Under the pieces are notes generated by a model. The model was not told the DNA's origin. It saw only the letters and a program-made list of their open reading frames with translations, and did no database searches. Made by a program: the position numbers and the translations under genes. Positions 10,709 to 48,882 of a stretch of 64,000 nt of DNA are shown here, one piece after another. Origin of the DNA: Candidatus Omnitrophota bacterium (GTDB taxonomy: Bacteria; Omnitrophota; Gorgyraeia; Gygaellales; Profunditerraquicolaceae); the NCBI GenBank assembly GCA_028712375.1, contig JAQTQG010000003.1:14619-78618 (forward strand), in the 5' to 3' direction. How positions within the stretch are numbered: position 1 is the stretch's first letter; each line of letters begins with the position of its first letter.

Positions 10709-12220
10709 CTATTCTGGAGCTCCCATAATAAAACCTGTGGTAAGCCCTTTTTCTTTAAACCAACTTTTTAATATGCCCTTACTTCCAGCAATTGCCGTAT
10801 CAATTTCTGAATCCGTTGGGGCACTCCACATTTGCCAGTTAAATAATCTTGCTAAACATGCTTTTATTTTTGAGTAGTCGCTATCCACTAAATCCCTATA
10901 AAATGGCTTAGCTTTCTCATCTCCATCATGAATATCTAATTTCGCACATATTGCGTCTCGCAATAGTTCTGACCAGGCCATAATTGATTTTGAAGAAAAT
11001 ATCCTACTGAGTTTACGCTGATTTTGATCACTAGGCGCGGCTGCAGGATTCCAATGTGAAAGCGCAAGTTCAAAAATCATATTCATTAAAGCAATAACAT
11101 TCTTAAACTCTGATTCTCTCCTATATTTTTCTGAAAACATATCATCATCAAGAGGCTCGGTATAAAGAAAACAAGCAAGGATTGACTTAGAGAGCATATC
11201 CACAGTAAGCGGTTGTTCATTGGAGCTCCTATTACTTGTTGAAACGAGTGGTTTGAGTTTATTAGACTCATCTTCAAGAATAGAATTATATAAGTAACTA
11301 CGGAAACGCTTGTTTCGCTCGCCCCGCGTAAGAGATATGTCTTTCTGCTCTAGAAATGACAAAAAACCACTTTCATTTTTTTTCTCAATATCTTCTCTAT
11401 TTTTATACTCTTCAAAATCTTTCCCAAATTGATTCCCTAATTTAAGAATTAATACTGACGAAAAAAATCTTGTTTGGGCGAATTTATCATGTGCTGATAT
11501 ATTAGCTTGATTAAGCATCCTCAAGTCGGGATCAAGATAGATCTTGCATTCAAATGTCTTTCTCCCATTCCACAATATCGCAGCTGCCTTGTGTTGACCA
11601 TCAAAAAGCAATATCCTATTATTTGAAACACGTCCTATTGAAGGTTGCAAAACTGGATAAATCTGGAAATGACGAAACATTTCAAATACTTTATCAAAAA
11701 TCAAATAACGTGGTTGTAGGCCCAAATGTTCATTATCATCATCATCGCTGTTAAGAATTGATATGGGTAAATTACCATAAAAATATTTCCAACCGGTTCG
11801 CGGACAGGTTTGGATATTAAACTGAGATGAAAAGGAGTGGTGTTGTAAAGTAACTGTTTTATCTTGGACATTAATAGCAACCGCTTCTCCAAAAGACTCA
11901 ATATCACCTGCCTTTTTTAAGTGCGTAATTAGATTACGCAATGTTAATCTATCGCCTTCTTCAAAAAATGATTCAAGTCGAAGTTTTATACGAAAATCCC
12001 CTAGAGGCAACATTCCCTTCGCCTTATTATGGTATTCGCACATAGGTGCAATATTATCAAGTTCTGATTGCCCATCTCGAGCATAAGCCCAAATATGGTC
12101 AAAATGAACCCTCTCCCCTTCCGGGATTGCATGCCCATTGGCAAAGCAAATACGCCCATGTCGATTTAAAATTATTTTCTTTTCATCATCATTGATTTGC
12201 CTTTTTAGAGTAATTGCCAT
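10709..12220 (-). CDS. HNH endonuclease fused to DGQHR (DndB/ParB-like) domain protein
   Basis: N-terminus C..NGH......HFDHI.......N...MCEYHN is an HNH motif. The central LLFDGQHKAAAIL is the DGQHR signature of the DndB branch of ParB/Srx-fold proteins. C-terminal ~200 aa unknown. Confidence 0.65.
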   Translation of the reverse strand: MAITLKRQINDDEKKIILNRHGRICFANGHAIPEGERVHFDHIWAYARDGQSELDNIAPMCEYHNKAKGMLPLGDFRIKLRLESFFEEGDRLTLRNLITHLKKAGDIESFGEAVAINVQDKTVTLQHHSFSSQFNIQTCPRTGWKYFYGNLPISILNSDDDDNEHLGLQPRYLIFDKVFEMFRHFQIYPVLQPSIGRVSNNRILLFDGQHKAAAILWNGRKTFECKIYLDPDLRMLNQANISAHDKFAQTRFFSSVLILKLGNQFGKDFEEYKNREDIEKKNESGFLSFLEQKDISLTRGERNKRFRSYLYNSILEDESNKLKPLVSTSNRSSNEQPLTVDMLSKSILACFLYTEPLDDDMFSEKYRRESEFKNVIALMNMIFELALSHWNPAAAPSDQNQRKLSRIFSSKSIMAWSELLRDAICAKLDIHDGDEKAKPFYRDLVDSDYSKIKACLARLFNWQMWSAPTDSEIDTAIAGSKGILKSWFKEKGLTTGFIMGAPE

Positions 12221-22506: not shown

Positions 22507-24762
22507 TTATTTCCTATAAGGCTTAAGTAGCTCCAGTAGTTTCGGGCTAATAGCATAACCTAATTGGCCGGCCTTATCGCAATGCTGGATTGCCAGGTTG
22601 TATTCTCCGGCATAATAGTAAGCCAGGGCAAGATTATGATGCGCAACGGCGAGAGTTGAATCAAGCTCCAGGGCTTTATTAAACCAGGCTACCGCCTCTT
22701 TGTTCCTGCCGAGAGTTAAGTATGCGTTACCTAAACCCACGCATGATTCCTTGGAGCCTGGATTAAGTTCCACGGCTTTCCTGTAGCAGGCAAGCGCGTC
22801 TTTATCTTTTTGAATGCGCGCAGACAAATTGCCGCAATAATAGTAAGCATCAAAAAAATCCAAGTTATTGGTTACGGCTTTTTTATACAACAACTCTAAT
22901 TTTTCCTGCTGGCCTAACGATTTGTAAAGTCCGGCAAGTTTAATGTAGGCCGGCAGATAAGCCGGATCTATATCTATCGCTTGGGACAACTCCGCCTTAG
23001 CCTCTTCTTTACGGTTAAGATTAACATATAAGGCACCCAGATAGTCGCGGGCATATAAAAACCGCGGAGCAAGCTCCGTTGTTTTAATATACAGCTTTAA
23101 TGCTTCATCCTTATCTCCGAGCAAATCTTTTATATTGGCAAGGTTAAAATATGCCCCTGCCTCTATCGCCATCCGGTTAGCTTCCACTACTTTTCTTCTA
23201 TCGCGCAGCAAATATTTTAAATTAGCGAATTTAAAATATGACCCTTCTTCTACAGCCGGACCACTAGCCGCTATCTTTTTTTCTTCAGTAGACAAACTAT
23301 TAAAATGAACGGAATCAAGATATTCCTCGGAATCTTTTATCAGGCGCTCAAATACCGCAATCGCCTCCGGGTTCCTGCCGAGAGCTTTTAAAGCATTGCC
23401 CAAGTTAAGATAATAATACTTCAACATCGGATCATCCGGAGACTTGGGCCTGGCGTTTATGGCAAACATGAAATCGGAAAGCGCCTGATGGTATTGCCCT
23501 TGCTTTAAGAAAAATTCACCGCGGTTACTGAAGGCAGCGGCAGTATCAGGATATTTCTTTAAAATATCATTCCACAGGCTTAATCCATTCTGCCAAACAG
23601 AGCATCTTTTCCAAGTAGCACATCCCAGGAAAATAATGATTGCCGCCAACATTATCGTTAAAAAAGTTTTAAGTAAATAACCATACTTTATTTTTCTTGC
23701 GTATAGCCACATGCAGCTTTGCGCAAACAGATAAAATATCCCGATCGCCGGCAAATAAACATACCGGTCGGCCGGCAATATTTTATCCAACGGCAAAGAG
23801 CGCAGCGCCGGAAAAATAACCAAGAGGAAGAATCCACTCCCTAAAATTATCTTTTTTGTATACCGGATTGAGATAACTGCCGCAATGGCCAAAATAAGCA
23901 CCAGCACAAAAGCATATAAATAAAACGGGTTATTTTTGACTTCAAAATACGGGTATAAAGCAGAAAGATTGAGCGGCGCGATTAACTTGCTAAGGTAAAA
24001 AACAATATCTCCTGATGCTCCGGCTAATTTAGTAAACAACCCGTATGAACCTTGAATGTAAAAAGCCTGGGATGAGGATGAAGCTAAAAGGGCAAGCAGG
24101 CCAAAAAGCACAGACAAAAGAAAATAAGGAATTTTTTCAAGAAAAACGGCCCAGCTTAGCTTTCTGGAATAAAAATAATCCAACAGTAATAAAACCAGCG
24201 GCAAAGTAATCGCCATGGACTTGGACAAAAGCGCCAGAATAAATAAACCCAGGCATAAGAAGTAACATTTTTTAGCCTGTTCTTTTTTCAAATAGTAAAG
24301 ATAGGCAACCAGGGATCCCAGGAAGAAAAATGCGCACAATACATTTTTTCTTTCACTAATCCAAGCGACCGATTCTACCTGCATCGGATGGATGCCAAAA
24401 AGAATAGCGGTGATCCAGGCAATAGCAATATTGCCGCTGATGATATAAATCAGCCAGAATACCCACAAACAATTTAATAAATGCAGAATCAAGTTGGTTA
24501 AATGGTAATTAAACGGGTTGAGCTTAAAAAAATGATACTCCAGTAGATAAGAATAGATGGTTACCGGCTGGTAATGCGCGATGAAGAAGGAAGTAGAAAT
24601 CTCTTTAATGTTCTCCAAAGAAACAGAACGAATGGCTTTATTTTCGGTGACATATAAATTATCGTCCCAATTGGTAAAATCATTTTTCAAGGAGGGATAG
24701 AAAGAGGCCAGAGTAATGGCCAGAATTAAAAAAACGGGGATGAGTATTTTATTTTTTTTCAC
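22507..24762 (-). CDS. TMTC-like GT-C fold membrane glycosyltransferase with C-terminal TPR repeats
   Basis: 751 aa. About 10 TM helices with an NWDDN acidic loop motif (GT-C DD/DE-like), then multiple TPR units (AY...G.....A...). Confidence 0.6.
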   Translation of the reverse strand: MKKNKILIPVFLILAITLASFYPSLKNDFTNWDDNLYVTENKAIRSVSLENIKEISTSFFIAHYQPVTIYSYLLEYHFFKLNPFNYHLTNLILHLLNCLWVFWLIYIISGNIAIAWITAILFGIHPMQVESVAWISERKNVLCAFFFLGSLVAYLYYLKKEQAKKCYFLCLGLFILALLSKSMAITLPLVLLLLDYFYSRKLSWAVFLEKIPYFLLSVLFGLLALLASSSSQAFYIQGSYGLFTKLAGASGDIVFYLSKLIAPLNLSALYPYFEVKNNPFYLYAFVLVLILAIAAVISIRYTKKIILGSGFFLLVIFPALRSLPLDKILPADRYVYLPAIGIFYLFAQSCMWLYARKIKYGYLLKTFLTIMLAAIIIFLGCATWKRCSVWQNGLSLWNDILKKYPDTAAAFSNRGEFFLKQGQYHQALSDFMFAINARPKSPDDPMLKYYYLNLGNALKALGRNPEAIAVFERLIKDSEEYLDSVHFNSLSTEEKKIAASGPAVEEGSYFKFANLKYLLRDRRKVVEANRMAIEAGAYFNLANIKDLLGDKDEALKLYIKTTELAPRFLYARDYLGALYVNLNRKEEAKAELSQAIDIDPAYLPAYIKLAGLYKSLGQQEKLELLYKKAVTNNLDFFDAYYYCGNLSARIQKDKDALACYRKAVELNPGSKESCVGLGNAYLTLGRNKEAVAWFNKALELDSTLAVAHHNLALAYYYAGEYNLAIQHCDKAGQLGYAISPKLLELLKPYRK

Positions 24763-38215: not shown

Positions 38216-38832
38216 ACCTCACATTTAGGATTTTGCTTACGGCAATAATCCTTGCCCAATTTTACTAACAGTGCATGATATTCACCGAACATCCCTGCGT
38301 TCTTGCTAAGGTTGCGCATAAAAATATCCTGTAGCTGCGCATAGCCTGCTTTGGCATCAACCAATCCGTGCCGGGATAGTATTCTTTTAGTGTAAGTATC
38401 GACGACGAATACCGGTTTCTTAAACGCATAAAGCAATATAGAATCGGCGGTCTCCGGCCCGATTCCTTTAACAGACAACAGTTGCGCGCGTAAAGATTTA
38501 AGTTCCTGCTTACTTATAAGTTTTACCTTACCCGCATAATAATCAAAGAAAAATTTAAGAAAATTTTTAATCCTCGCCGCTTTAACATTATAACACCCTG
38601 CACTTTTAATTAAACCGGCAAGTTTGCCTTGCGGTAATTTATAAAGCCGGGAAGCATCTAAAAGTTTTTTTGCTTTAAGGCTTAGGATTGCTTTTTCAAC
38701 ATTAGACCAACTGGTATTCTGAGTAAGAATTGCTCCTACAATAACCTCAAAAACGCTATCCGCCGGCCACCAATATTGCGGTCCAAAAACAGCATAAAGC
38801 CGCTTGAATATATTTCCTAACCTGCGTTTCAT
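38185..38832 (-). CDS. HhH-GPD family DNA glycosylase (endonuclease III-like)
   Basis: 215 aa. VKGIGPETADSILLYAF..PVFVVDTYTKRIL helix-hairpin-helix-GPD motif, and a C-terminal C...C..C..C-like Fe-S loop (CRKQNPKCEVCPL). Confidence 0.65.
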   Translation of the reverse strand: MKRRLGNIFKRLYAVFGPQYWWPADSVFEVIVGAILTQNTSWSNVEKAILSLKAKKLLDASRLYKLPQGKLAGLIKSAGCYNVKAARIKNFLKFFFDYYAGKVKLISKQELKSLRAQLLSVKGIGPETADSILLYAFKKPVFVVDTYTKRILSRHGLVDAKAGYAQLQDIFMRNLSKNAGMFGEYHALLVKLGKDYCRKQNPKCEVCPLWSTKKG

Positions 38833-40766
38833 TCCTTCAGTTCTAAAGGATTAAAACCATAATAGGCAAACAGAGTATAGGCTGTGCCCGACACTGAACC
38901 GGTATGGCTGCCCTTGGGAGTCGACCAGCCATGGCCGGTATCTACCTGATCCAAAGTAGCATAGGGCAAACAACCTTGGCCTTGGCCGGAAGGAGAAGAA
39001 CTGGAAATAATCATATTCCCTAACTCGCTCAGATACATTTGGGCTTTCCGGCCATAACTAGCAGCCTTAGCCTTATCCCCTTTTTTTAAATAAAATTCTT
39101 CCATAATTTTATAAGAAACCACCATTTGCGCTGTCCATTCCGAAGAGACTACTCCTCCGCGGGAGGTATGGCGCTGCGGGGCAAAATCAAATCCTTTTAT
39201 TTTCACGCTCTGAGAATTTGTGCGCATAAAATCAACTTCTACGCGGCAATTCTCTTCTACAAATTCTAAGATCTTATCCGGATCCATACCTAAAGACAAT
39301 AATTTTTCCGGCCCTAAAGCAGCAATGCTCCAAGCATAAGTGTCAGTGGCAATGGTCGAGTCCCCCTTACCCCGTTTAACCGGTAGCTCCGGGCGACCAT
39401 AAGTATATTTAACCATCCAATCTACAGCTTTCTGCGCGGCCTGAGAATATTTTTCCTTTCCCGTAACCTGTGCCAACATATTAAAAAAAGCGTAAGCATC
39501 CAGGTTGTGCTCTGTAGCATACCAACTCATTGTCGGGCCGCCCCGGATACCGCCTTCGGCGTCCTGATTTTGTAAATCAATAATTGATTGGGCAATACTT
39601 TCAGCTAATTCCAGATAAGCCTGATTTTTAGCAAATTGCATATACTGCATCGCCGCCAAACCTACCCAAAGATTCGGACCGCTATGCAGGATAAATTCTG
39701 CCGGAGCGCCATCATCCACATAGTAAGCATTAAGAAACCAGCCGTTTTCTCTTTTGGCATTGTGAGCAAAAAAATCTAAAATTTTACGGGCGCGCTCAAA
39801 ATCCCCAAACCTGGAATAAGCTTGGGCTAACAACGCCAAATCATAGGTAAATGACCAATTGGCAATTTCCTTATCTCCCTCAAAACTAGCCACCAGCCCC
39901 GTACGGCTATTCTGATGAATTTTAAGCCATTGGTACATCTTATCAAAGTTGGCTTTCTCTAAAACTACTTTCTGTTCATCCAGGTGGGTTAATTCTTTAG
40001 CCGCGACATTCTCGTTACGCACCGCCGCCGCCAATTTATTTTCCAACAATAGTTTTTCTTCAGACAATCTGGCAATCAAGCCATTCAGCTGTTTGATCTG
40101 CTCCAGGTCACCTGCTTGGATTTGTTCCTTCTGAAACTGCACAGACTTAATCTGCTCCTGAAGCCTTCTTAGTTTCGCGGCAAAACTTTTACGCTGGGTA
40201 GCGATATTAGTTATTTTTTGTTTAGTCTGGCTGGAATCTTTTAATACTGTCGCCAGCTTTTCAATAAGCAATTTATTGCCCTGGGTCAATTTGAAATTTA
40301 AATAGCTGTTAACGCCCAGGCCTGCGCCCAGGATAATAACCAGCGCTAAAGCCGCCGGGACAAAAAGTTTTTTAAACCACGCATAACGCATAAGTTTATT
40401 ATTTAGCCTGGCCGGGATAGAATCATAATTTACTCCCACCAAATACTGGTGTTTATCCCCAAAAATATCTTTGGCCCAGACTATGCTGGCACGCGCACAG
40501 ATAGGCTTGCGGCTGATAGGAATATCAATTTCCAGCGACAGCTTGACATACTTTTTCTTGAATAATTCAAATAATTCCGGATCAAGATTGTTAATTGCCA
40601 GGCAGATCCCGCCGCGGCTGATATTGTTCGTAAACCCCTGTATCCAGCCGGAAAGAAATACATCCCCTTGCGGCTCCTGTAGCCTAAACTGCACCGGAAA
40701 GACAGTATCCAAACGCAGGTATTTGCGATGTTCGGCCGGGATTGATTTTTTATTTTTGAATAACAT
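38829..40766 (-). CDS. PilZ-domain protein fused to TM segment, coiled coil and C-terminal alpha/alpha-toroid (glycoside-hydrolase-like) domain
   Basis: N-terminal RKYLRLD...NISRGGICL matches PilZ RxxxR...D.S.GG. One TM helix, a ~150-aa coiled coil, then W/Y-rich repeats typical of (alpha/alpha)6 barrels. Confidence 0.55.
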   Translation of the reverse strand: MLFKNKKSIPAEHRKYLRLDTVFPVQFRLQEPQGDVFLSGWIQGFTNNISRGGICLAINNLDPELFELFKKKYVKLSLEIDIPISRKPICARASIVWAKDIFGDKHQYLVGVNYDSIPARLNNKLMRYAWFKKLFVPAALALVIILGAGLGVNSYLNFKLTQGNKLLIEKLATVLKDSSQTKQKITNIATQRKSFAAKLRRLQEQIKSVQFQKEQIQAGDLEQIKQLNGLIARLSEEKLLLENKLAAAVRNENVAAKELTHLDEQKVVLEKANFDKMYQWLKIHQNSRTGLVASFEGDKEIANWSFTYDLALLAQAYSRFGDFERARKILDFFAHNAKRENGWFLNAYYVDDGAPAEFILHSGPNLWVGLAAMQYMQFAKNQAYLELAESIAQSIIDLQNQDAEGGIRGGPTMSWYATEHNLDAYAFFNMLAQVTGKEKYSQAAQKAVDWMVKYTYGRPELPVKRGKGDSTIATDTYAWSIAALGPEKLLSLGMDPDKILEFVEENCRVEVDFMRTNSQSVKIKGFDFAPQRHTSRGGVVSSEWTAQMVVSYKIMEEFYLKKGDKAKAASYGRKAQMYLSELGNMIISSSSPSGQGQGCLPYATLDQVDTGHGWSTPKGSHTGSVSGTAYTLFAYYGFNPLELKE

Positions 40767-43543: not shown

Positions 43544-45055
43544 TTAAAACGTTACCTCCACATAAAACTCAAGCTGGTAAGCATTGTTCGCCTGGCCATC
43601 ACCCCGCACGTATGGACTAAAGGGGCTTCCGTCTGTATCATCGCGCTTTTCTTTATAATACTTTCCAGGAACAAAGATCCCGCCTAAAAAACCCAGGTTA
43701 ATATGCTCAGTTGCTTTGTAGTCCACAAATACATCTGCTTCAACCCCTAAATCAGGTGAAAGATACCGCGCTTCTCCGTCCAAAGTCCCTACCGGGCGGT
43801 TAAATGCCCTCAGATAGTATCCATACAGACTTACGCAAAGCTTATCGGTAACATTATAATCAAAGCCTACCGAGGGCATAATCAAATCTTCGAAATCTCC
43901 GGGAGAAAATGTCCCGGGCCGGGGCACTCCATAATTTAACCCGTATCCTCCCCCCATAGTTATAATCGGCAACATACTCACATTACTGCTGCTTACCGCA
44001 TCCCCTAAATTTCTGTTTGTAGGAGAAGCATAGCTAAAAGCCCGGTTCTTTCCTGAAACATAAAGCTCATCCGGTTTCCCGGCCATCTCCAAAGTTGCCT
44101 TGTTCCCGGAACAGAATAAAAATTGCAATTCCGGAACAAGCTTTCCTAAAACATAATCGAACCCGGAATAAAACATATAACCGGTATGCTCAATGTTTTT
44201 ATACTCGCTATCCTGGGTATGCGCATACCCAAAGTTGCGCGCTGCCTCCAGCTTTAAAGTAAATTTATCCGCCGCATATTCCCAAGCGGTGCCCAAAGTC
44301 CCCAGCAAATCCCGGTTTATCGGAGCAGCATAAAGATTATCTCTTTTGCCATTAGAGGTATAATCTGCCAGCATGCCAACATAAGGCCAGAATGTCTGAT
44401 TTCCTGCGGTAATTTTAACGTCGGTGGCAAAAAAATTGGCCGCATTCGGTTCGTATTTCTGCCCCTGCTCCCTTTCCTGTTGAATACGCGGGCCCAAATA
44501 ATATTTATAAGCTAAATCCGGCCGGCAATAATACAGGCGCCAAAAAATATTTTTTGCCTGATAATACACAGTAGCGCCGTAATTTTCATAACCGCCGTTA
44601 AGGCTAAAACCATTGCCTACTTCATAAATATACAACCCGGTCTTTAAGCCAAAATTACCCCAAAGCTTATTATCCAGCCAGGCTTCTTCAACTTGTGGGA
44701 ATAATTCTGCATTACGGTATTTTTCTATCCTGCCTCCGGAGGTAATCAGGGTGTTGTGAATAAAAAGCGGGGCATCATAATCATAAGGCCCATTACGCTC
44801 AAGCTTAATATAAAACTTGTTCCCGGAATCTTTAAAATCAGCATCCAGAGCAAAACTATAATCAATCCCTAAATAAGTAGTTTGATCGTCTTTATTGTGG
44901 CTATCCAAATCCACAACATTCTTCAGGGTCACTAAGTCCGTGCGGAAATAGGAGTTAAGTTGCAGCGTTAACTGATCGGTATTTAGTAATTCATAGCCGT
45001 GTGCCGCCGGAATAAAAGAGAAAGCTAAAAACATAAAGAGACAAACTATTTTCAC
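43544..45055 (-). CDS. outer-membrane beta-barrel protein (porin-like)
   Basis: Signal peptide MKIVCLFMFLAFSFIPAAHG, alternating amphipathic strands, and a C-terminal ...YVEVTF with terminal aromatic residue. Confidence 0.5.
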   Translation of the reverse strand: MKIVCLFMFLAFSFIPAAHGYELLNTDQLTLQLNSYFRTDLVTLKNVVDLDSHNKDDQTTYLGIDYSFALDADFKDSGNKFYIKLERNGPYDYDAPLFIHNTLITSGGRIEKYRNAELFPQVEEAWLDNKLWGNFGLKTGLYIYEVGNGFSLNGGYENYGATVYYQAKNIFWRLYYCRPDLAYKYYLGPRIQQEREQGQKYEPNAANFFATDVKITAGNQTFWPYVGMLADYTSNGKRDNLYAAPINRDLLGTLGTAWEYAADKFTLKLEAARNFGYAHTQDSEYKNIEHTGYMFYSGFDYVLGKLVPELQFLFCSGNKATLEMAGKPDELYVSGKNRAFSYASPTNRNLGDAVSSSNVSMLPIITMGGGYGLNYGVPRPGTFSPGDFEDLIMPSVGFDYNVTDKLCVSLYGYYLRAFNRPVGTLDGEARYLSPDLGVEADVFVDYKATEHINLGFLGGIFVPGKYYKEKRDDTDGSPFSPYVRGDGQANNAYQLEFYVEVTF

Positions 45056-45211
45056 AATTTTCTCTCCTTGCTACAATCGCCTTAATGAAAAACTAATGCC
45101 ATAGTAACACCGGGAAATAAAAAACTCAAGGCAAATCAAAATTATACCTGTAAACCGGGGAAATTCCGGGCATAAAAAACGCCATAAGTAAATTATGGCG
45201 TTTATTTATAT

Positions 45212-45290
45212 TGGCGGGGCCGACGAGATTCGGACTCGCGATCTCCTCCGTGACAGGGAGGCGCTTTAAGCCAGGCTAAGCTACGACCCC
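45212..45290 (-). tRNA. tRNA-Asp (anticodon GTC), CCA encoded
   Basis: Reverse complement GGGGTCGTAGCTTAGCCTGG...CCTCC-CTGTCAC-GGAGG...TTCGAATCTCGTCGGCCCCGCCA. Cloverleaf with GTC anticodon. Boundaries within +/-2 nt. Confidence 0.8.
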
Positions 45291-45390
45291 AATATTGGTC
45301 AATAATACCTTAAGTTTATATATTGTATGTAAATTCCGAACAAATGCAACAATTTCTTCTCAGCTACACACCATCGGATGAGAATTAAAA

Positions 45391-45464
45391 TGGGCGATAG
45401 AGGAGTTGAACCCCTGACCTTCTGAATGTAAATCAGACGCTCTAACCAACTGAGCTAATCGCCC
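45391..45464 (-). tRNA. tRNA-Val (anticodon TAC), CCA not encoded
   Basis: Reverse complement GGGCGATTAGCTCAGTTGGTTAGAGCGTCTGATTTACATTCAGAAGGTCAGGGGTTCAACTCCTCTATCGCCCA. Anticodon loop TTTACAT. Confidence 0.8.
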
Positions 45465-45794
45465 GTAAATTTAGGTTACTTTTCCCTACGATTAGCGTGT
45501 CCGCCAAAGCATTATGGCGGAGAGCTGATCGCCCAACAATCCCAATTTTACCTATTTCTACGATTAAATCACCTTGGCCGCGTTTTTATCATTACAAACA
45601 AATAAAATAAGGTTCGTTTTCGAGGCTGTAGGCCTTAAGCTCCAGAAGTGAAATCAACTATACCAGATTTACTAACCTCTGTAAAGCAAGATTTCGCAAT
45701 TTGATCAAATCACCAAATCAATGAATATTACACAGGGATACCCGTCCACATGGTTACTTAATAACTGATTACTTAAAAGGGGCATAACGACGCT

Positions 45795-47261
45795 TTACTG
45801 TCCGAATACTTCTTTAAGAATTACATCTGCGGCGTGCTGCGCCAGCAGCTGATTGCCCTTGTCCGTGCAATGCCCGAAATCTCCGGCAAAACTGTCCTTA
45901 AATAACGCCGCATAACCGTTACCATGTAAAGCATCTTTAAACACCTTCTCATTATCAATAAAAAGAATCCCCTCGCAATCCGGAAAAATATCTTTTAACG
46001 GTTTTACACTGCGCACAGGGTATTGCATACAAGCCAGCTTTATGCCTCTTTTATCTAAAACACTCCTGAGCTTTAAATAATTACTTCTGGTGGTGGGATT
46101 ATAATACTGCATTCTTAACCTGTTCGATTCCTTATAATACCGGTCTGCAAATTTGCCTTCTCCGGACTGGCTGTAAAAAGCCCCCAGCATACCATACAAA
46201 TAATCGCTCTTTAAACCTTTATCCAAATACTTATTCAATAAATTTTCTATTTCGGAGTATTTACCCTGGCAGCGATAAACTAGGATTAACTCTGCAACTA
46301 TCTGCAGGTCATCCGGATTTATTTTCAAAGCCTTATTAAATAAATCTTCGGCTAAAGAGTACTTCTGCCTGAGACGGTAACCAATTGCCATCCAATAATA
46401 TGCGTCTGCGTTTGAAGGGTTTACCTTGATGGCTTCCTTAAAAAAATCCTCTGACTGCGAAAAATATTTATAATCCCAATATAATTTTATAAGAAGCCCG
46501 TAAGCGGCATTATTCCGGGGATTAATCGCAATAGCTTTTTTAAATGAAGATTCGGCATCCGCAAATCTACCGGCTATCGAATATAGTTCCGCATCCTCAA
46601 CATACTCTTCATCATTTTTTAAGCCGAGACCGGGGGCGTTTTCCTCGGGAATAGGGGCAGCATAAACCATATTTAAGCAGATTTTCGAAAAATAGTTCTG
46701 CTTTCTGTGAAAAGCGGCCTGGCTTGTTTTTAATTTATGCGGTTCTTTTCTCTTGAATTTATTCTGCGCATGCAGATAAATAAGCCGGGCTAATTTATAT
46801 ACCTTAAAAGACTCCAAAAAAGACAAGGCCTTGGCGCTTACCCTGTTTTCCCAAAATACACGTTCCCCCCCGTCATTTATTCCCATCATAGCAATAACCA
46901 TTTGCGGTTTATATTTATCCAGGTTTGCTTCTAATTTTGAAACTATAGTTTTCGTATTAAAACCTGCCGCACCATCATCGATAACACTAAATTTAATTCC
47001 AATATTGCTCCGGTTCAAGGCTTCTTCCAGAAAACGGGGGTATTGCCCGCCGGTAGTAGATTCCCCCAGGCAAAGAATACGGTAGGTACCTTTTTGTTTG
47101 ATTGATTGCAGATTCCGGTATTCCTGTATAGACGACAGGATGGCTCCGCCCAAACGCAGGCCGGCTTCCAGGGCCAAGATAAACAAAAACAGCCCGAATA
47201 ATATCAGGGCTATTTTTTGTTTAAGCGGGATCTTAAAAAGTAAGGGCTTACTTGCTGCCAT
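45795..47261 (-). CDS. membrane-anchored SGNH/GDSL-type hydrolase with inserted TPR array (paralog 1)
   Basis: N-terminal TM helix. Block I ILCLGESTTGG (Ser nucleophile), block II DDGAAG, block III MMGINDGG, then TPR units. C-terminal block V GDFGHCT (DxxH). Confidence 0.6.
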   Translation of the reverse strand: MAASKPLLFKIPLKQKIALILFGLFLFILALEAGLRLGGAILSSIQEYRNLQSIKQKGTYRILCLGESTTGGQYPRFLEEALNRSNIGIKFSVIDDGAAGFNTKTIVSKLEANLDKYKPQMVIAMMGINDGGERVFWENRVSAKALSFLESFKVYKLARLIYLHAQNKFKRKEPHKLKTSQAAFHRKQNYFSKICLNMVYAAPIPEENAPGLGLKNDEEYVEDAELYSIAGRFADAESSFKKAIAINPRNNAAYGLLIKLYWDYKYFSQSEDFFKEAIKVNPSNADAYYWMAIGYRLRQKYSLAEDLFNKALKINPDDLQIVAELILVYRCQGKYSEIENLLNKYLDKGLKSDYLYGMLGAFYSQSGEGKFADRYYKESNRLRMQYYNPTTRSNYLKLRSVLDKRGIKLACMQYPVRSVKPLKDIFPDCEGILFIDNEKVFKDALHGNGYAALFKDSFAGDFGHCTDKGNQLLAQHAADVILKEVFGQ

Positions 47262-47292
47262 ATGATTAAAAACTCAAATGCAACTTATTTAA

Positions 47293-48882
47293 TTAATTTG
47301 GTAATTTATTAAATACTTCCTCCAAGATGGCATCTGCAATATTCTGCGCTAAAAGCTTATTGCCTTTTTCCGTGCAATGGCCGAAATCTCCGGCAAACAT
47401 ATCGCTAAAATATTCATTAGAATCCGCTTTTCTCAATGCTTCTTGAAATATTTTTTCATTATCGACAAAAATAATATTATCATCTTTTTCAAATATTTTC
47501 TTTAGAGGTTCCACGCTGCGCATAGGATACTGCACACACACCAGCCTTATTCCTTTTTTATGTAATATATTTTTTAACCTGCGGTAATTTCTCACGGTAG
47601 CCGGATTATAATATTCTAGCCGCAGCCTATTTGCTTTTTGAGCATATTCTTTTGCCAATTGCGGCCGTCCGGTATTTTTATACAATAAACAGATTGCGCC
47701 GTAAGCTTTATCGTTTTGGGGGTTTAACGCTAGGGCTTTTTGGAATGCCTCTTCGGCCAGCGAAAATTCACCCTGGCTTTGATAAAGCCAGCCCAATTCC
47801 ACATAAACACCCCCGTTTTTAGGATTTATCTGTATAGATTTATTAAAAGCCTCCCTAGCCAAAGAAAATTTATTTTGCAGCCGATAAATCCACCCCAAGC
47901 CGAAATAGGCATTATCGTTTTGGGGGTTTAACGCTAGGGCTTTTTGGAATGCCTCCTCGGACAGCGAAAATTCACCCTGGCTTTGATAAAGCCAGCCTAA
48001 TTCAGTATGCGCATTATCGTTTTGGGAGTTTAACGCTAGGGCTTTTTGGAATGCCTCTTCGGCAACGGACAGCCTATTTTGATGCAGATAAATCCACCCT
48101 AACCCAAAATATGCCTTATCGTTTTGAGGGTTTAGCGCTAGGGCTTTTTGGAATGCCTCTTCGGCAACGGGTAATTCTCCCCGATCCCGATAAAACATTC
48201 CCATTTCAATATAAACCTTATCATTTTGGGGGTTTAGCGCTAGGGCTTTTTGGAATGCCTCTTCGGTTGAAACAACCTCGGCATAAGCTTCTTTTAATCT
48301 TATTCCCTGGAAATGAACTTGAATTGGCCCGGCTCTATTTTTATTATCATTAGATTTTCCACTCCGCATTTCCTGAGCCTTAGCCAAAATATGATGCCAA
48401 AGCAAGCTGGCTAATTTATAAGTTTTAAACGATCTAATAAAAGACCCTGCTTTGTAAGTATTTTTTACTCCAAAACAAACAAGCTCCCCCCAATCATTAA
48501 CCCCCATCATTACCGTGACCATGCTTGGATTATACTCAAAAATATAGGATTCGACCTTACTTAATATTGCCGATGTGTTTGTGCCCCCCACGCCTTTATC
48601 AATTACGCTAAAGTGTATTCCAATATTGCTCCGGTTCAAGGCTTCTTCCAGAAAACGGGGGTATTGCCCGCCGGTAGTAGATTCCCCCAGGCAAAGAATA
48701 CGGTAGGTACCTTTTTGTTTGATTGATTGCAGATTCCGGTATTCCTGTATAGACGACAGGATGGCTCCGCCCAAACGCAGGCCGGCTTCCAGGGCCAAGA
48801 TAAACAAAAACAGCCCGAATAATATCAGGGCTATTTTTTGTTTAAGCGGGATCCCGGGGTAAAAAGATTGATCTTTCTGCAT
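47293..48882 (-). CDS. membrane-anchored SGNH/GDSL-type hydrolase with inserted TPR array (paralog 2)
   Basis: First 79 aa identical to paralog 1. GVNDWG block III. Eight-plus near-identical TPR units. C-terminal GDFGHCTEKGN. Confidence 0.6.
   Translation of the reverse strand: MQKDQSFYPGIPLKQKIALILFGLFLFILALEAGLRLGGAILSSIQEYRNLQSIKQKGTYRILCLGESTTGGQYPRFLEEALNRSNIGIHFSVIDKGVGGTNTSAILSKVESYIFEYNPSMVTVMMGVNDWGELVCFGVKNTYKAGSFIRSFKTYKLASLLWHHILAKAQEMRSGKSNDNKNRAGPIQVHFQGIRLKEAYAEVVSTEEAFQKALALNPQNDKVYIEMGMFYRDRGELPVAEEAFQKALALNPQNDKAYFGLGWIYLHQNRLSVAEEAFQKALALNSQNDNAHTELGWLYQSQGEFSLSEEAFQKALALNPQNDNAYFGLGWIYRLQNKFSLAREAFNKSIQINPKNGGVYVELGWLYQSQGEFSLAEEAFQKALALNPQNDKAYGAICLLYKNTGRPQLAKEYAQKANRLRLEYYNPATVRNYRRLKNILHKKGIRLVCVQYPMRSVEPLKKIFEKDDNIIFVDNEKIFQEALRKADSNEYFSDMFAGDFGHCTEKGNKLLAQNIADAILEEVFNKLPN
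47690..48300. repeat. near-identical ~102-105-bp tandem DNA repeats encoding TPR units
   Basis: GGGCTTTTTGGAATGCCTC(T/C)TCGG recurs at ~47725, 47935, 48040, 48135 and 48243, with conserved flanks. Confidence 0.7.

Follow-up and report, generated by a model that had tools for sequence, protein, structure and literature searches.

Two tandem genes of a Candidatus Omnitrophota bacterium encode membrane-anchored proteins with a predicted SGNH domain split by a tetratricopeptide repeat array and a signature of gene conversion

Several extracytoplasmic SGNH-type proteins receive an acyl group that is passed across the membrane by an MBOAT, as described for DltD, AlgJ and AlgX with the MBOATs DltB and AlgI. 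The motif FxYxxF was identified as the acyl shuttle by which MBOATs hand acyl groups to their SGNH partners (PMC12148441). In Gram-negative peptidoglycan O-acetylation the partner of the MBOAT PatA is PatB, whose family is DUF459 (PF04311; PMC9487903) and whose single N-terminal transmembrane (TM) helix contacts PatA in an AlphaFold model (PMC12148441). Classical SGNH carbohydrate esterases and thioesterases, among them Geobacillus Axe2, AlAXEase and Escherichia coli TesA/TAP (Lipase_GDSL_2, Lipase_GDSL), are soluble and contiguous proteins of ~180-220 aa. Here, two adjacent genes, designated par2 and par1, were analyzed in a stretch of 64,000 nucleotides (the window) from a 95.5-kb contig of a Candidatus Omnitrophota metagenome-assembled genome (MAG). 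Both encode a TM helix and a predicted SGNH domain that is interrupted by an array of tetratricopeptide repeats (TPRs). With moderate confidence, we propose that they are periplasm-facing enzymes that would work through an acyl-Ser68 intermediate on an envelope glycan, that their TPR arrays would serve targeting or scaffolding, and that they are old tandem paralogues which were later subject to gene conversion. The structural and evolutionary part of this picture is general and largely solid; what the enzymes act on, whether they add or remove acyl groups and what the TPRs do are what we infer.

The two genes are co-oriented on the minus strand, where par2 (47293-48882; 529 aa; MDD5129756.1) is separated by a gap of 31 bp from par1 (45795-47261; 488 aa; MDD5129755.1). 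Both are present in the list of open reading frames (ORFs), as given in a preliminary description of this sequence, and have exact database matches, which NCBI labels 'tetratricopeptide repeat protein' and nothing more. Residues are given below in true numbering with Met1 counted; alignment A1 and the structural model of par1 were built without Met1. The sole hydrophobic segment of each protein was found at residues 17-35 (Kyte-Doolittle 19-residue mean 2.61), in agreement with the single TM anchor assumed earlier. This signal-anchor is encoded on the minus strand at 47157-47213 in par1 (IALILFGLFLFILALEAGL), where it is part of a long helix in the model, and at 48778-48834 in par2, with a sequence identical to that of par1. 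Basic residues precede the segment, and no cysteine fit for a lipobox was found. Judged by the basic N-terminus alone, the bulk of both proteins would lie outside the membrane. Across 70 family members, two polar residues of the TM region, E32 and R36, do not vary.

The SGNH features, all encoded on the minus strand, are distributed over two halves. The N-terminal half, delineated by partial Pfam matches together with the model of par1 and the motifs of par2, is located at 46803-47096 in par1 (~residues 56-153; strands 1-3, blocks I-III) and at 48424-48717 in par2. Its block I reads G66-E67-S68-T69-T70 in both proteins (47052-47066 in par1, 48673-48687 in par2), and block III at residues 127-130 reads G127-I-N129-D130 in par1 (46869-46883) and G-V-N-D in par2 (48490-48504). 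The block II region 'IDxGxxGxNT' aligns with 'NKGISGNT' of Axe2, the block II glycine being one of several. The C-terminal half comprises strands 4-5, block V and a terminal helix in par1 (45798-46109; residues 385-488) and was placed at 47296-47616 in par2. Block V is found in it ~25-28 residues before the C-terminus, as D461-F-G-H464 in par1 (DFGHCT, 45864-45881) and D499-F-G-H502 in par2 (DFGHCT, 47371-47388). These positions agree with the preliminary assignment of blocks I and III to the N-terminal region and of block V to the C-terminal end. Of these residues, S68, G127, D130 and H464 do not vary among 70 full-length homologues, and conservation is at least 90% for N129 and D461; the block V acid varies between D, E and N, with D in most members, and the histidine is kept. 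The block motifs were detected in 107-117 of 120 matches.

Between the two halves lies the TPR array. In par1 it covers 46113-46613 (minus strand; residues 217-383) with ~5 units, as judged from Pfam TPR matches and ten helices of the model, and in par2 it covers 47656-48267 (minus strand; residues 206-409) with six units of 34 aa and a period of 102 bp, as judged from Tandem Repeats Finder, repeat families and unit matrices. The range of five to nine units proposed earlier was too high for these two genes. For TPR_1, whose cut-off is 27.8, par2 scored 146 bits over six stretches and par1 scored 45 bits. Tandem Repeats Finder reported 5.5 copies with 70% matches over 47702-48266 and a period of 102 bp, as compared with the 102-105 bp of the preliminary description. 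On the opposite strand of the par2 TPR region, plus-strand ORFs occur at 47949-48353 and within 47631-47931 with a recurring 'GLFGMPLR' peptide; these are a by-product of the 102-bp repeat being read on the other strand and most likely not genes.

The AlphaFold model of par1 (pLDDT 80, pTM 0.71) starts with a long helix (13-55), followed by strands 60-66, 91-95 and 121-125 and two helices. A low-confidence linker (173-212) leads into ten TPR-type helices (217-383), and a further helix, strands 408-411 and 432-434 and the terminal helix complete the chain. Five strands are thus arranged as 3+2 on either side of the ten TPR helices.

For comparison with Pfam, the insert (residues ~154-384) was removed. 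Spliced in this manner, par2 matched Lipase_GDSL (PF00657) over positions 22-207 of 208 with 26.9 bits, above the cut-off of 23.6. All 22 spliced homologues matched Lipase_GDSL_2 (best E 4.8e-11) and likewise DUF459, the latter at E 0.01 or better (best E 1.7e-9). No NCBIfam model matched the SGNH part of par1 or par2. Natural relatives without TPRs were also found. These are 272-332 aa long, have the same TM helix and 'GDFGHC' ending, carry GDSTT as block I and have 19-43 residues between the halves. In the model of one of them, P0121 (pLDDT 86.7, pTM 0.81), strands and helices follow one another as they do in the halves of par1, and the model superposes on Axe2, AlAXEase and TesA over ~230-250 alignment columns with TM-scores of 0.64-0.72 normalised to the target. 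When the fold of the complete par1 model was searched for in PDB and BFVD, TPR proteins were the only matches, which was uninformative on the SGNH part, and a profile of the full-length alignment against PDB was swamped by TPRs. From the homology to the TPR-less relatives and the order of the secondary-structure elements, the two halves are predicted to fold into one catalytic domain, with the TPR insertion in a surface loop between strand 3 and the helix preceding strand 4. The view that an SGNH domain is split by TPRs, put forward in the preliminary description, is supported by the passing score of spliced par2, the matches of the 22 spliced homologues and the existence of TPR-less relatives. 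One further relative, P0165 (337 aa), carries a single TPR-like insert of ~60 residues in the same loop (alignment A3 columns ~170-260) and is otherwise TPR-less; the TPR-split form may have arisen from the unsplit one by way of such an intermediate.

The architecture is not confined to this locus. A full-length search gave more than 1,900 matches among 8,000 scored candidates, nearly all of them unnamed or labelled as TPR proteins. With the C-terminal half of par1 (105 residues) as query, 2,388 clusters at 50% identity were retrieved at E up to 1e-3 and 1,832 at E up to 1e-10, and the match was almost always located at the end of proteins of 400-680 aa. Given these thousands of clusters, the architecture is frequent in uncultured bacteria; it had been called unusual before, which is correct when it is compared with characterised enzymes and does not hold for metagenomes, where it is common. 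Literature searches yielded no relevant published account of TPRs inserted in an SGNH domain. Among species-representative genomes, relatives are encoded by 453 matched stretches, most of them in Omnitrophota and some in MAGs labelled Margulisiibacteriota, Firestonebacteria, Elusimicrobia, Planctomycetales, Paceibacterota and Patescibacteria. One contig labelled 'Patescibacteria group' (DATJPV010000016.1; loci L009/L010) contains four family copies, an AMP-binding ligase with a carrier protein and a gene for a Toluene_X outer-membrane protein. Since a Toluene_X gene is odd for a monoderm genome, this label may be wrong.

Among 78 distinct loci, the window included, 38 contain at least two copies and one contains twelve; some Pfam-less genes in the gene tables of the fetched loci are family members as well. 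Both halves were detectable in 111 family genes, and the insert between them ranges from 19 to 659 aa, which bears out the earlier suggestion of a variable TPR cassette. A 34-aa periodicity of the insert lengths is weak (R = 0.18, p ~0.03), because the linker ahead of the TPRs varies.

The pair had previously been ascribed to recent duplication and gene conversion, of which only the latter can be maintained. As reported, the segments 46996-47232 (par1) and 48617-48853 (par2), both on the minus strand, are identical at 237 of 237 positions and encode the same 79 residues (11-89 of both proteins); the identity has sharp edges and does not extend on either side. The tract takes in the TM and juxtamembrane helices as well as block I, Ser68 included, and stops just before strand β2. 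In the 44 codons past it (codons 90-133) par1 and par2 are identical at 76 of 132 positions. In GCA_026387265.1, the closest relative available, the gene order is V-ATPase, a 527-aa par2-like gene and a 485-aa par1-like gene. Outside residues 11-89, the nearest match of par1 is the 485-aa gene and that of par2 is the 527-aa gene, and in alignment columns 91-200 identities to the orthologues amount to 70/95 and 63/110, as compared with 45/110 between par1 and par2. Since each paralogue has its own orthologue in this syntenic relative, sequence comparison dates the duplication before the split of the two genomes, so that it is not recent. With a duplication of that age, the identical tract would be a later gene conversion. 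The tract differs from the orthologues at ~24% of positions (179-180 of 237 identical), and the 237-nt identity between the paralogues has the appearance of a gene-conversion signature. The donor is unassignable, because the informative sites are split, with 21 for one orthologue and 20 for the other.

A second kind of homogenisation was observed within the par2 array. In pairwise comparison its 102-nt units are identical at 50-83 of 102 positions (49-81%), so that the five near-identical units of the preliminary description do not exist as whole units. They do exist as half-units: in five of the six units a segment of 48 nt (xEEAFQKALALNPQND) is identical at 44-47 of 48 positions, whereas the same segments and their positional orthologues in the relative share 33-39 of 48. 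Five par2 TPR units thus appear to have been homogenised in their helix-B half. By the canonical TPR register the 48-nt stretch corresponds to helix B and the loop, and helix A is the more variable half. The concave face by which TPRs bind is lined by helix A in known TPR-ligand complexes. Seven other genomes also have adjacent paralogues that are mosaics, with 90-100% identity in the N- and/or C-terminal SGNH-coding parts and ~50-70% identity in the TPR middle; the exact tracts found there are 110-299 nt long.

To survey the gene neighbourhoods of the family, 550 neighbouring ORFs were clustered. The neighbourhoods are heterogeneous. Recurrent neighbours are a carbamoyltransferase (11 loci), DUF5989 (7 loci) and a QueC-like PP-loop protein (6 loci), besides radical SAM enzymes (some of them fused to TPRs), GT2, GT4 and PMT_2 glycosyltransferases, a sulfatase and sulfotransferases. 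These are genes of envelope-glycan synthesis and tailoring. AMP-binding ligases were found near family members in ~5-6 loci, and together with a carrier protein in one genome. In L007/L008 an MBOAT is located between family members, and its last six residues are FIYYIF. Scanning metagenomes with this MBOAT led to L093 (68% identity) and L086 (55% identity), where the MBOATs end in FIYYIF and FIYFQF, respectively, and a family member follows immediately downstream in both. Large ORFs with an N-terminal W[DW]xR, which served as an MBOAT proxy in the recovered loci, had a hydrophobic-x-Y-x-x-hydrophobic end in 63 of 69 cases.

A Dlt-like gene set as a general rule was rejected: jackhmmer over 84 loci detected an MBOAT in 1 distinct locus, a carrier in 1 and AMP-binding ligases in ~6. 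Genes beside the TPR-less relatives that resembled a ligase, a carrier and an MBOAT in size proved to encode the carbamoyltransferase, DUF5989 and a PQQ β-propeller protein. The carbamoyltransferase (PF02543/PF16861) and the small DUF5989 protein, often together with the QueC-like PP-loop protein, form a module that adjoins family members with or without TPRs (L015 10699-12877; L017 11359-13146; L006 18158-18355; also L026, L031, L044, L054, L070 and L078). Literature searches on DUF5989 gave nothing relevant.

According to the reading that we favor, the signal-anchor TM helix would leave the remainder of each protein on the periplasmic side of the cytoplasmic membrane of this diderm. The first SGNH half would supply Ser68 as the nucleophile (block I), the block II glycine region and Asn129 (block III), an array of 5-6 TPR units would interrupt the domain in a surface loop, and the second half would supply Asp461 and His464 in par1 or Asp499 and His502 in par2. 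Via an acyl-Ser68 intermediate, O-acyl groups would be added to or removed from a glycan of the envelope, on the outer side of the inner membrane, and the TPR array might hold the acceptor polymer or a partner protein. In terms of history, the old duplication would have come first; conversion would later have copied between the paralogues the 237 bp that cover the TM helix to block I, and the helix-B halves of par2 would have been homogenised. By analogy to PatB, transfer with an MBOAT acyl shuttle is slightly favored over plain de-acylation, a preference that derives from homologues in other genomes and not from this window.

Several observations weigh against this proposal. Full-length par1 and par2 match Lipase_GDSL_2, NonGDSL, DUF459 and Lipase_GDSL in the N-terminal half only and below all cut-offs, and spliced par1 stays under the PF00657 cut-off (20.5 bits versus 23.6). 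The proximity of Ser68 and His464 in par1 is only a prediction from the TPR-less relatives and the order of the secondary-structure elements. The nearest solved structures and PDB sequences of the TPR-less relatives are the hydrolases Axe2 and TesA, and neither the 50 best fold matches nor the profile search of PDB included DltD, AlgX or PatB. Within the window, par1 and par2 are not part of a glycan gene cluster, and the two PMT_2 genes that follow the pair in GCA_026387265.1 are absent. The 64 kb contain no MBOAT (tblastn), AMP-binding ligase or carrier protein, and in the genome scan an adjacent MBOAT was found in only 1 of ~76 distinct family loci. Assembly consensus might account for a small part of the exact 100% identity of the tract.

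Some of these points would fit a plain hydrolase, that is, a membrane-tethered periplasmic carbohydrate esterase or deacylase which acts on an envelope or imported glycan without an MBOAT and whose TPRs bind the substrate only. We consider this possible, if rather doubtful. The nearest counterparts in structure and in PDB sequence are esterases for acetyl-xylan and acetyl-mannan as well as TesA, the four SGNH blocks are all canonical, the window and most family loci are without an MBOAT, and sulfatase and GH5 genes occasionally adjoin. However, an acyl-shuttle MBOAT directly adjoins in three independent loci, similarity to DUF459/PatB extends to all spliced members, and the neighbours are mostly biosynthetic rather than catabolic; moreover, the TM helix with its invariant polar residues is the segment that conversion has kept uniform. 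Sequence is unable to separate a transferase from a hydrolase, because PatB-type transferases share the catalytic blocks (PMC9487903).

The diderm inner-membrane anchor, which would keep the enzyme periplasmic and other cells out of reach, also weighs against the idea that ultra-small host-dependent bacteria use the family as a host- or prey-directed lipase or esterase repertoire, a diversifying set of surface enzymes for attacking other cells or clinging to them, with the variable TPR array as recognition module. Such a repertoire would be in keeping with tandem arrays of up to 12 copies and highly variable TPR number, with the contrast between conserved ends and divergent middles, which is also known from variable surface gene families, and with a family that is concentrated in Omnitrophota and includes some records under the labels Patescibacteria or Paceibacterota. 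It is nevertheless very unlikely: no secretion-system genes recur beside the family, the neighbours are the cell's own glycan-tailoring genes, and the 'Patescibacteria group' label is doubtful on a contig that carries a Toluene_X gene. The 237-bp identity or the tandem layout might also be an assembly artefact, produced by collapse or consensus-merging of similar short-read paths in the MAG. The window stems from a single MAG contig of one assembly only, and de Bruijn bubble-popping can erase a few real differences within a near-identical repeat. Bubble-popping, however, needs copies that are already near-identical, and conversion is therefore implied anyway. The order V-ATPase, par2, par1 is repeated in the independently assembled relative, each copy retains its own orthology outside the tract, and identical tracts of 110-299 nt between adjacent paralogues occur in at least seven other genomes from different studies. 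With synteny conserved and the pattern recurring in other assemblies, an artefact is unlikely, to the extent that we give it hardly any credence.

Starting from the favored reading of an acyl-Ser68 enzyme that acts on an envelope glycan, a more speculative extension can be formulated, for which our confidence is low. One FxYxxF MBOAT might serve many TPR-addressed SGNH transferases in Omnitrophota, with conversion keeping the docking and catalytic module interchangeable among paralogues and the TPRs, which diverge in sequence and number, directing the same acyl group to many different envelope acceptors. The interchangeable module would, with the same low confidence, consist of the TM helix with E32 and R36, block I and, elsewhere, the block V half. 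If true, the family would form a modular system of 'one donor, many addressable transferases', for which PatAB, AlgIJFX and Dlt offer no described counterpart.

In the window, a V-type ATPase operon lies upstream of the par2-par1 pair, and tRNA-Val, tRNA-Asp and a 503-aa protein without Pfam match lie downstream. A scan for promoters and terminators yielded no more sites than shuffled controls. Between the par1 orthologue and the 503-aa gene, the relative has a pair of genes (L001 7488-10534) for PMT_2 proteins, which are GT-C glycosyltransferases, each 491 aa long. The corresponding interval of the window (45056-45794) contains tRNA-Val (45391-45464) and tRNA-Asp (45212-45290) only and no PMT_2 remnant; the difference is an indel adjoining the tRNA genes. 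The 503-aa protein (43544-45055, minus strand), which matches neither Pfam nor NCBIfam, has a signal-peptide-like N-terminus, ends in YVEVTF, resembling the termini of outer-membrane β-barrels, and is kept at the same position in the relative (L001 11262-12773). Kinship with the other Pfam-less 503-aa ORF of the window (10709-12220) was ruled out, as the two are unrelated to each other. A 645-aa protein with an N-terminal PilZ domain and a GH76-like region (38829-40766, minus strand) is also kept in the relative (L001 15400 onward). The sole PMT_2 homologue of the window (tblastn, jackhmmer) is a 751-aa protein (22507-24762, minus strand) with an N-terminal PMT_2-like glycosyltransferase region and C-terminal TPRs. 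In other genomes, radical SAM domains are fused to C-terminal TPR arrays near family members (L019 3501-5309 and a similar 602-aa gene, L056 10354-12162). With fusions to SGNH, PMT_2 and radical SAM domains, TPR arrays therefore join several unrelated enzyme types in these genomes.

Several thousand entries named 'tetratricopeptide repeat protein' are probably enzymes, because the complete SGNH catalytic set is retained, and the envelope biology of Omnitrophota and neighbouring uncultured phyla would read differently in this light. A helical repeat of variable length within an SGNH domain widens the known routes to substrate specificity. The mosaic is a clear case, found in nature, of a catalytic module that undergoes concerted evolution next to a diversifying recognition module. 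Should the link to MBOATs prove general, the family would add a new branch to the MBOAT-SGNH systems of polymer acylation, the mechanism of which has been elucidated only recently. As far as we found, the combination of a TPR solenoid within an SGNH domain, a TM anchor, multi-copy arrays and concerted catalytic ends is undescribed in the literature.

Compared with known systems, par1 and par2 share blocks I, II, III and V and, according to prediction, the five-stranded α/β/α fold with the classical SGNH enzymes, which in contrast lack both the membrane anchor and the ~170-200 aa of TPRs within the domain and have GDS instead of GES in block I. With Dlt the family has in common an AMP-binding ligase and a carrier protein at one locus, in one genome only, whereas neither the fold nor the sequence searches matched DltD or AlgX. 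The SGNH protein AlgX of alginate export is bound by AlgK, a TPR protein encoded separately from it (PMC9734138); in par1 and par2, TPR and SGNH are one polypeptide. PatB is alike in its single N-terminal TM helix, its extracytoplasmic SGNH domain and the same blocks, in the DUF459 matches of all 22 spliced members, and in that some members adjoin an FxYxxF MBOAT (PMC12148441). Such an adjoining MBOAT, characteristic of the PatB, AlgJ and DltD pairs, is absent from the window and present for the homologues in L007/L008, L093 and L086. PatB differs by the TPR insertion, which only the par1/par2 family has, and by copy number, as the family is multi-copy and PatB is described as a single protein that pairs with a single MBOAT (PMC12148441, PMC9487903). 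In addition, DUF459 scores are under the cut-off of 27.2 (par1 16.8 full-length and 20.6 spliced, par2 21.6 spliced); all spliced members match DUF459 and par1 and par2 stay below its cut-off, and they are therefore related to this family and not members of it. The described precedent for the split domain is Neisseria meningitidis Ape1, where, as in CE2-type esterases, a binding module is likewise inserted within the SGNH domain and not appended to it (reviewed in PMC9487903). The likeness concerns insertion within the domain as such; the insert of Ape1 and the CE2-type esterases is a β-sandwich carbohydrate-binding module, whereas that of par1 and par2 is a helical TPR solenoid of variable length.

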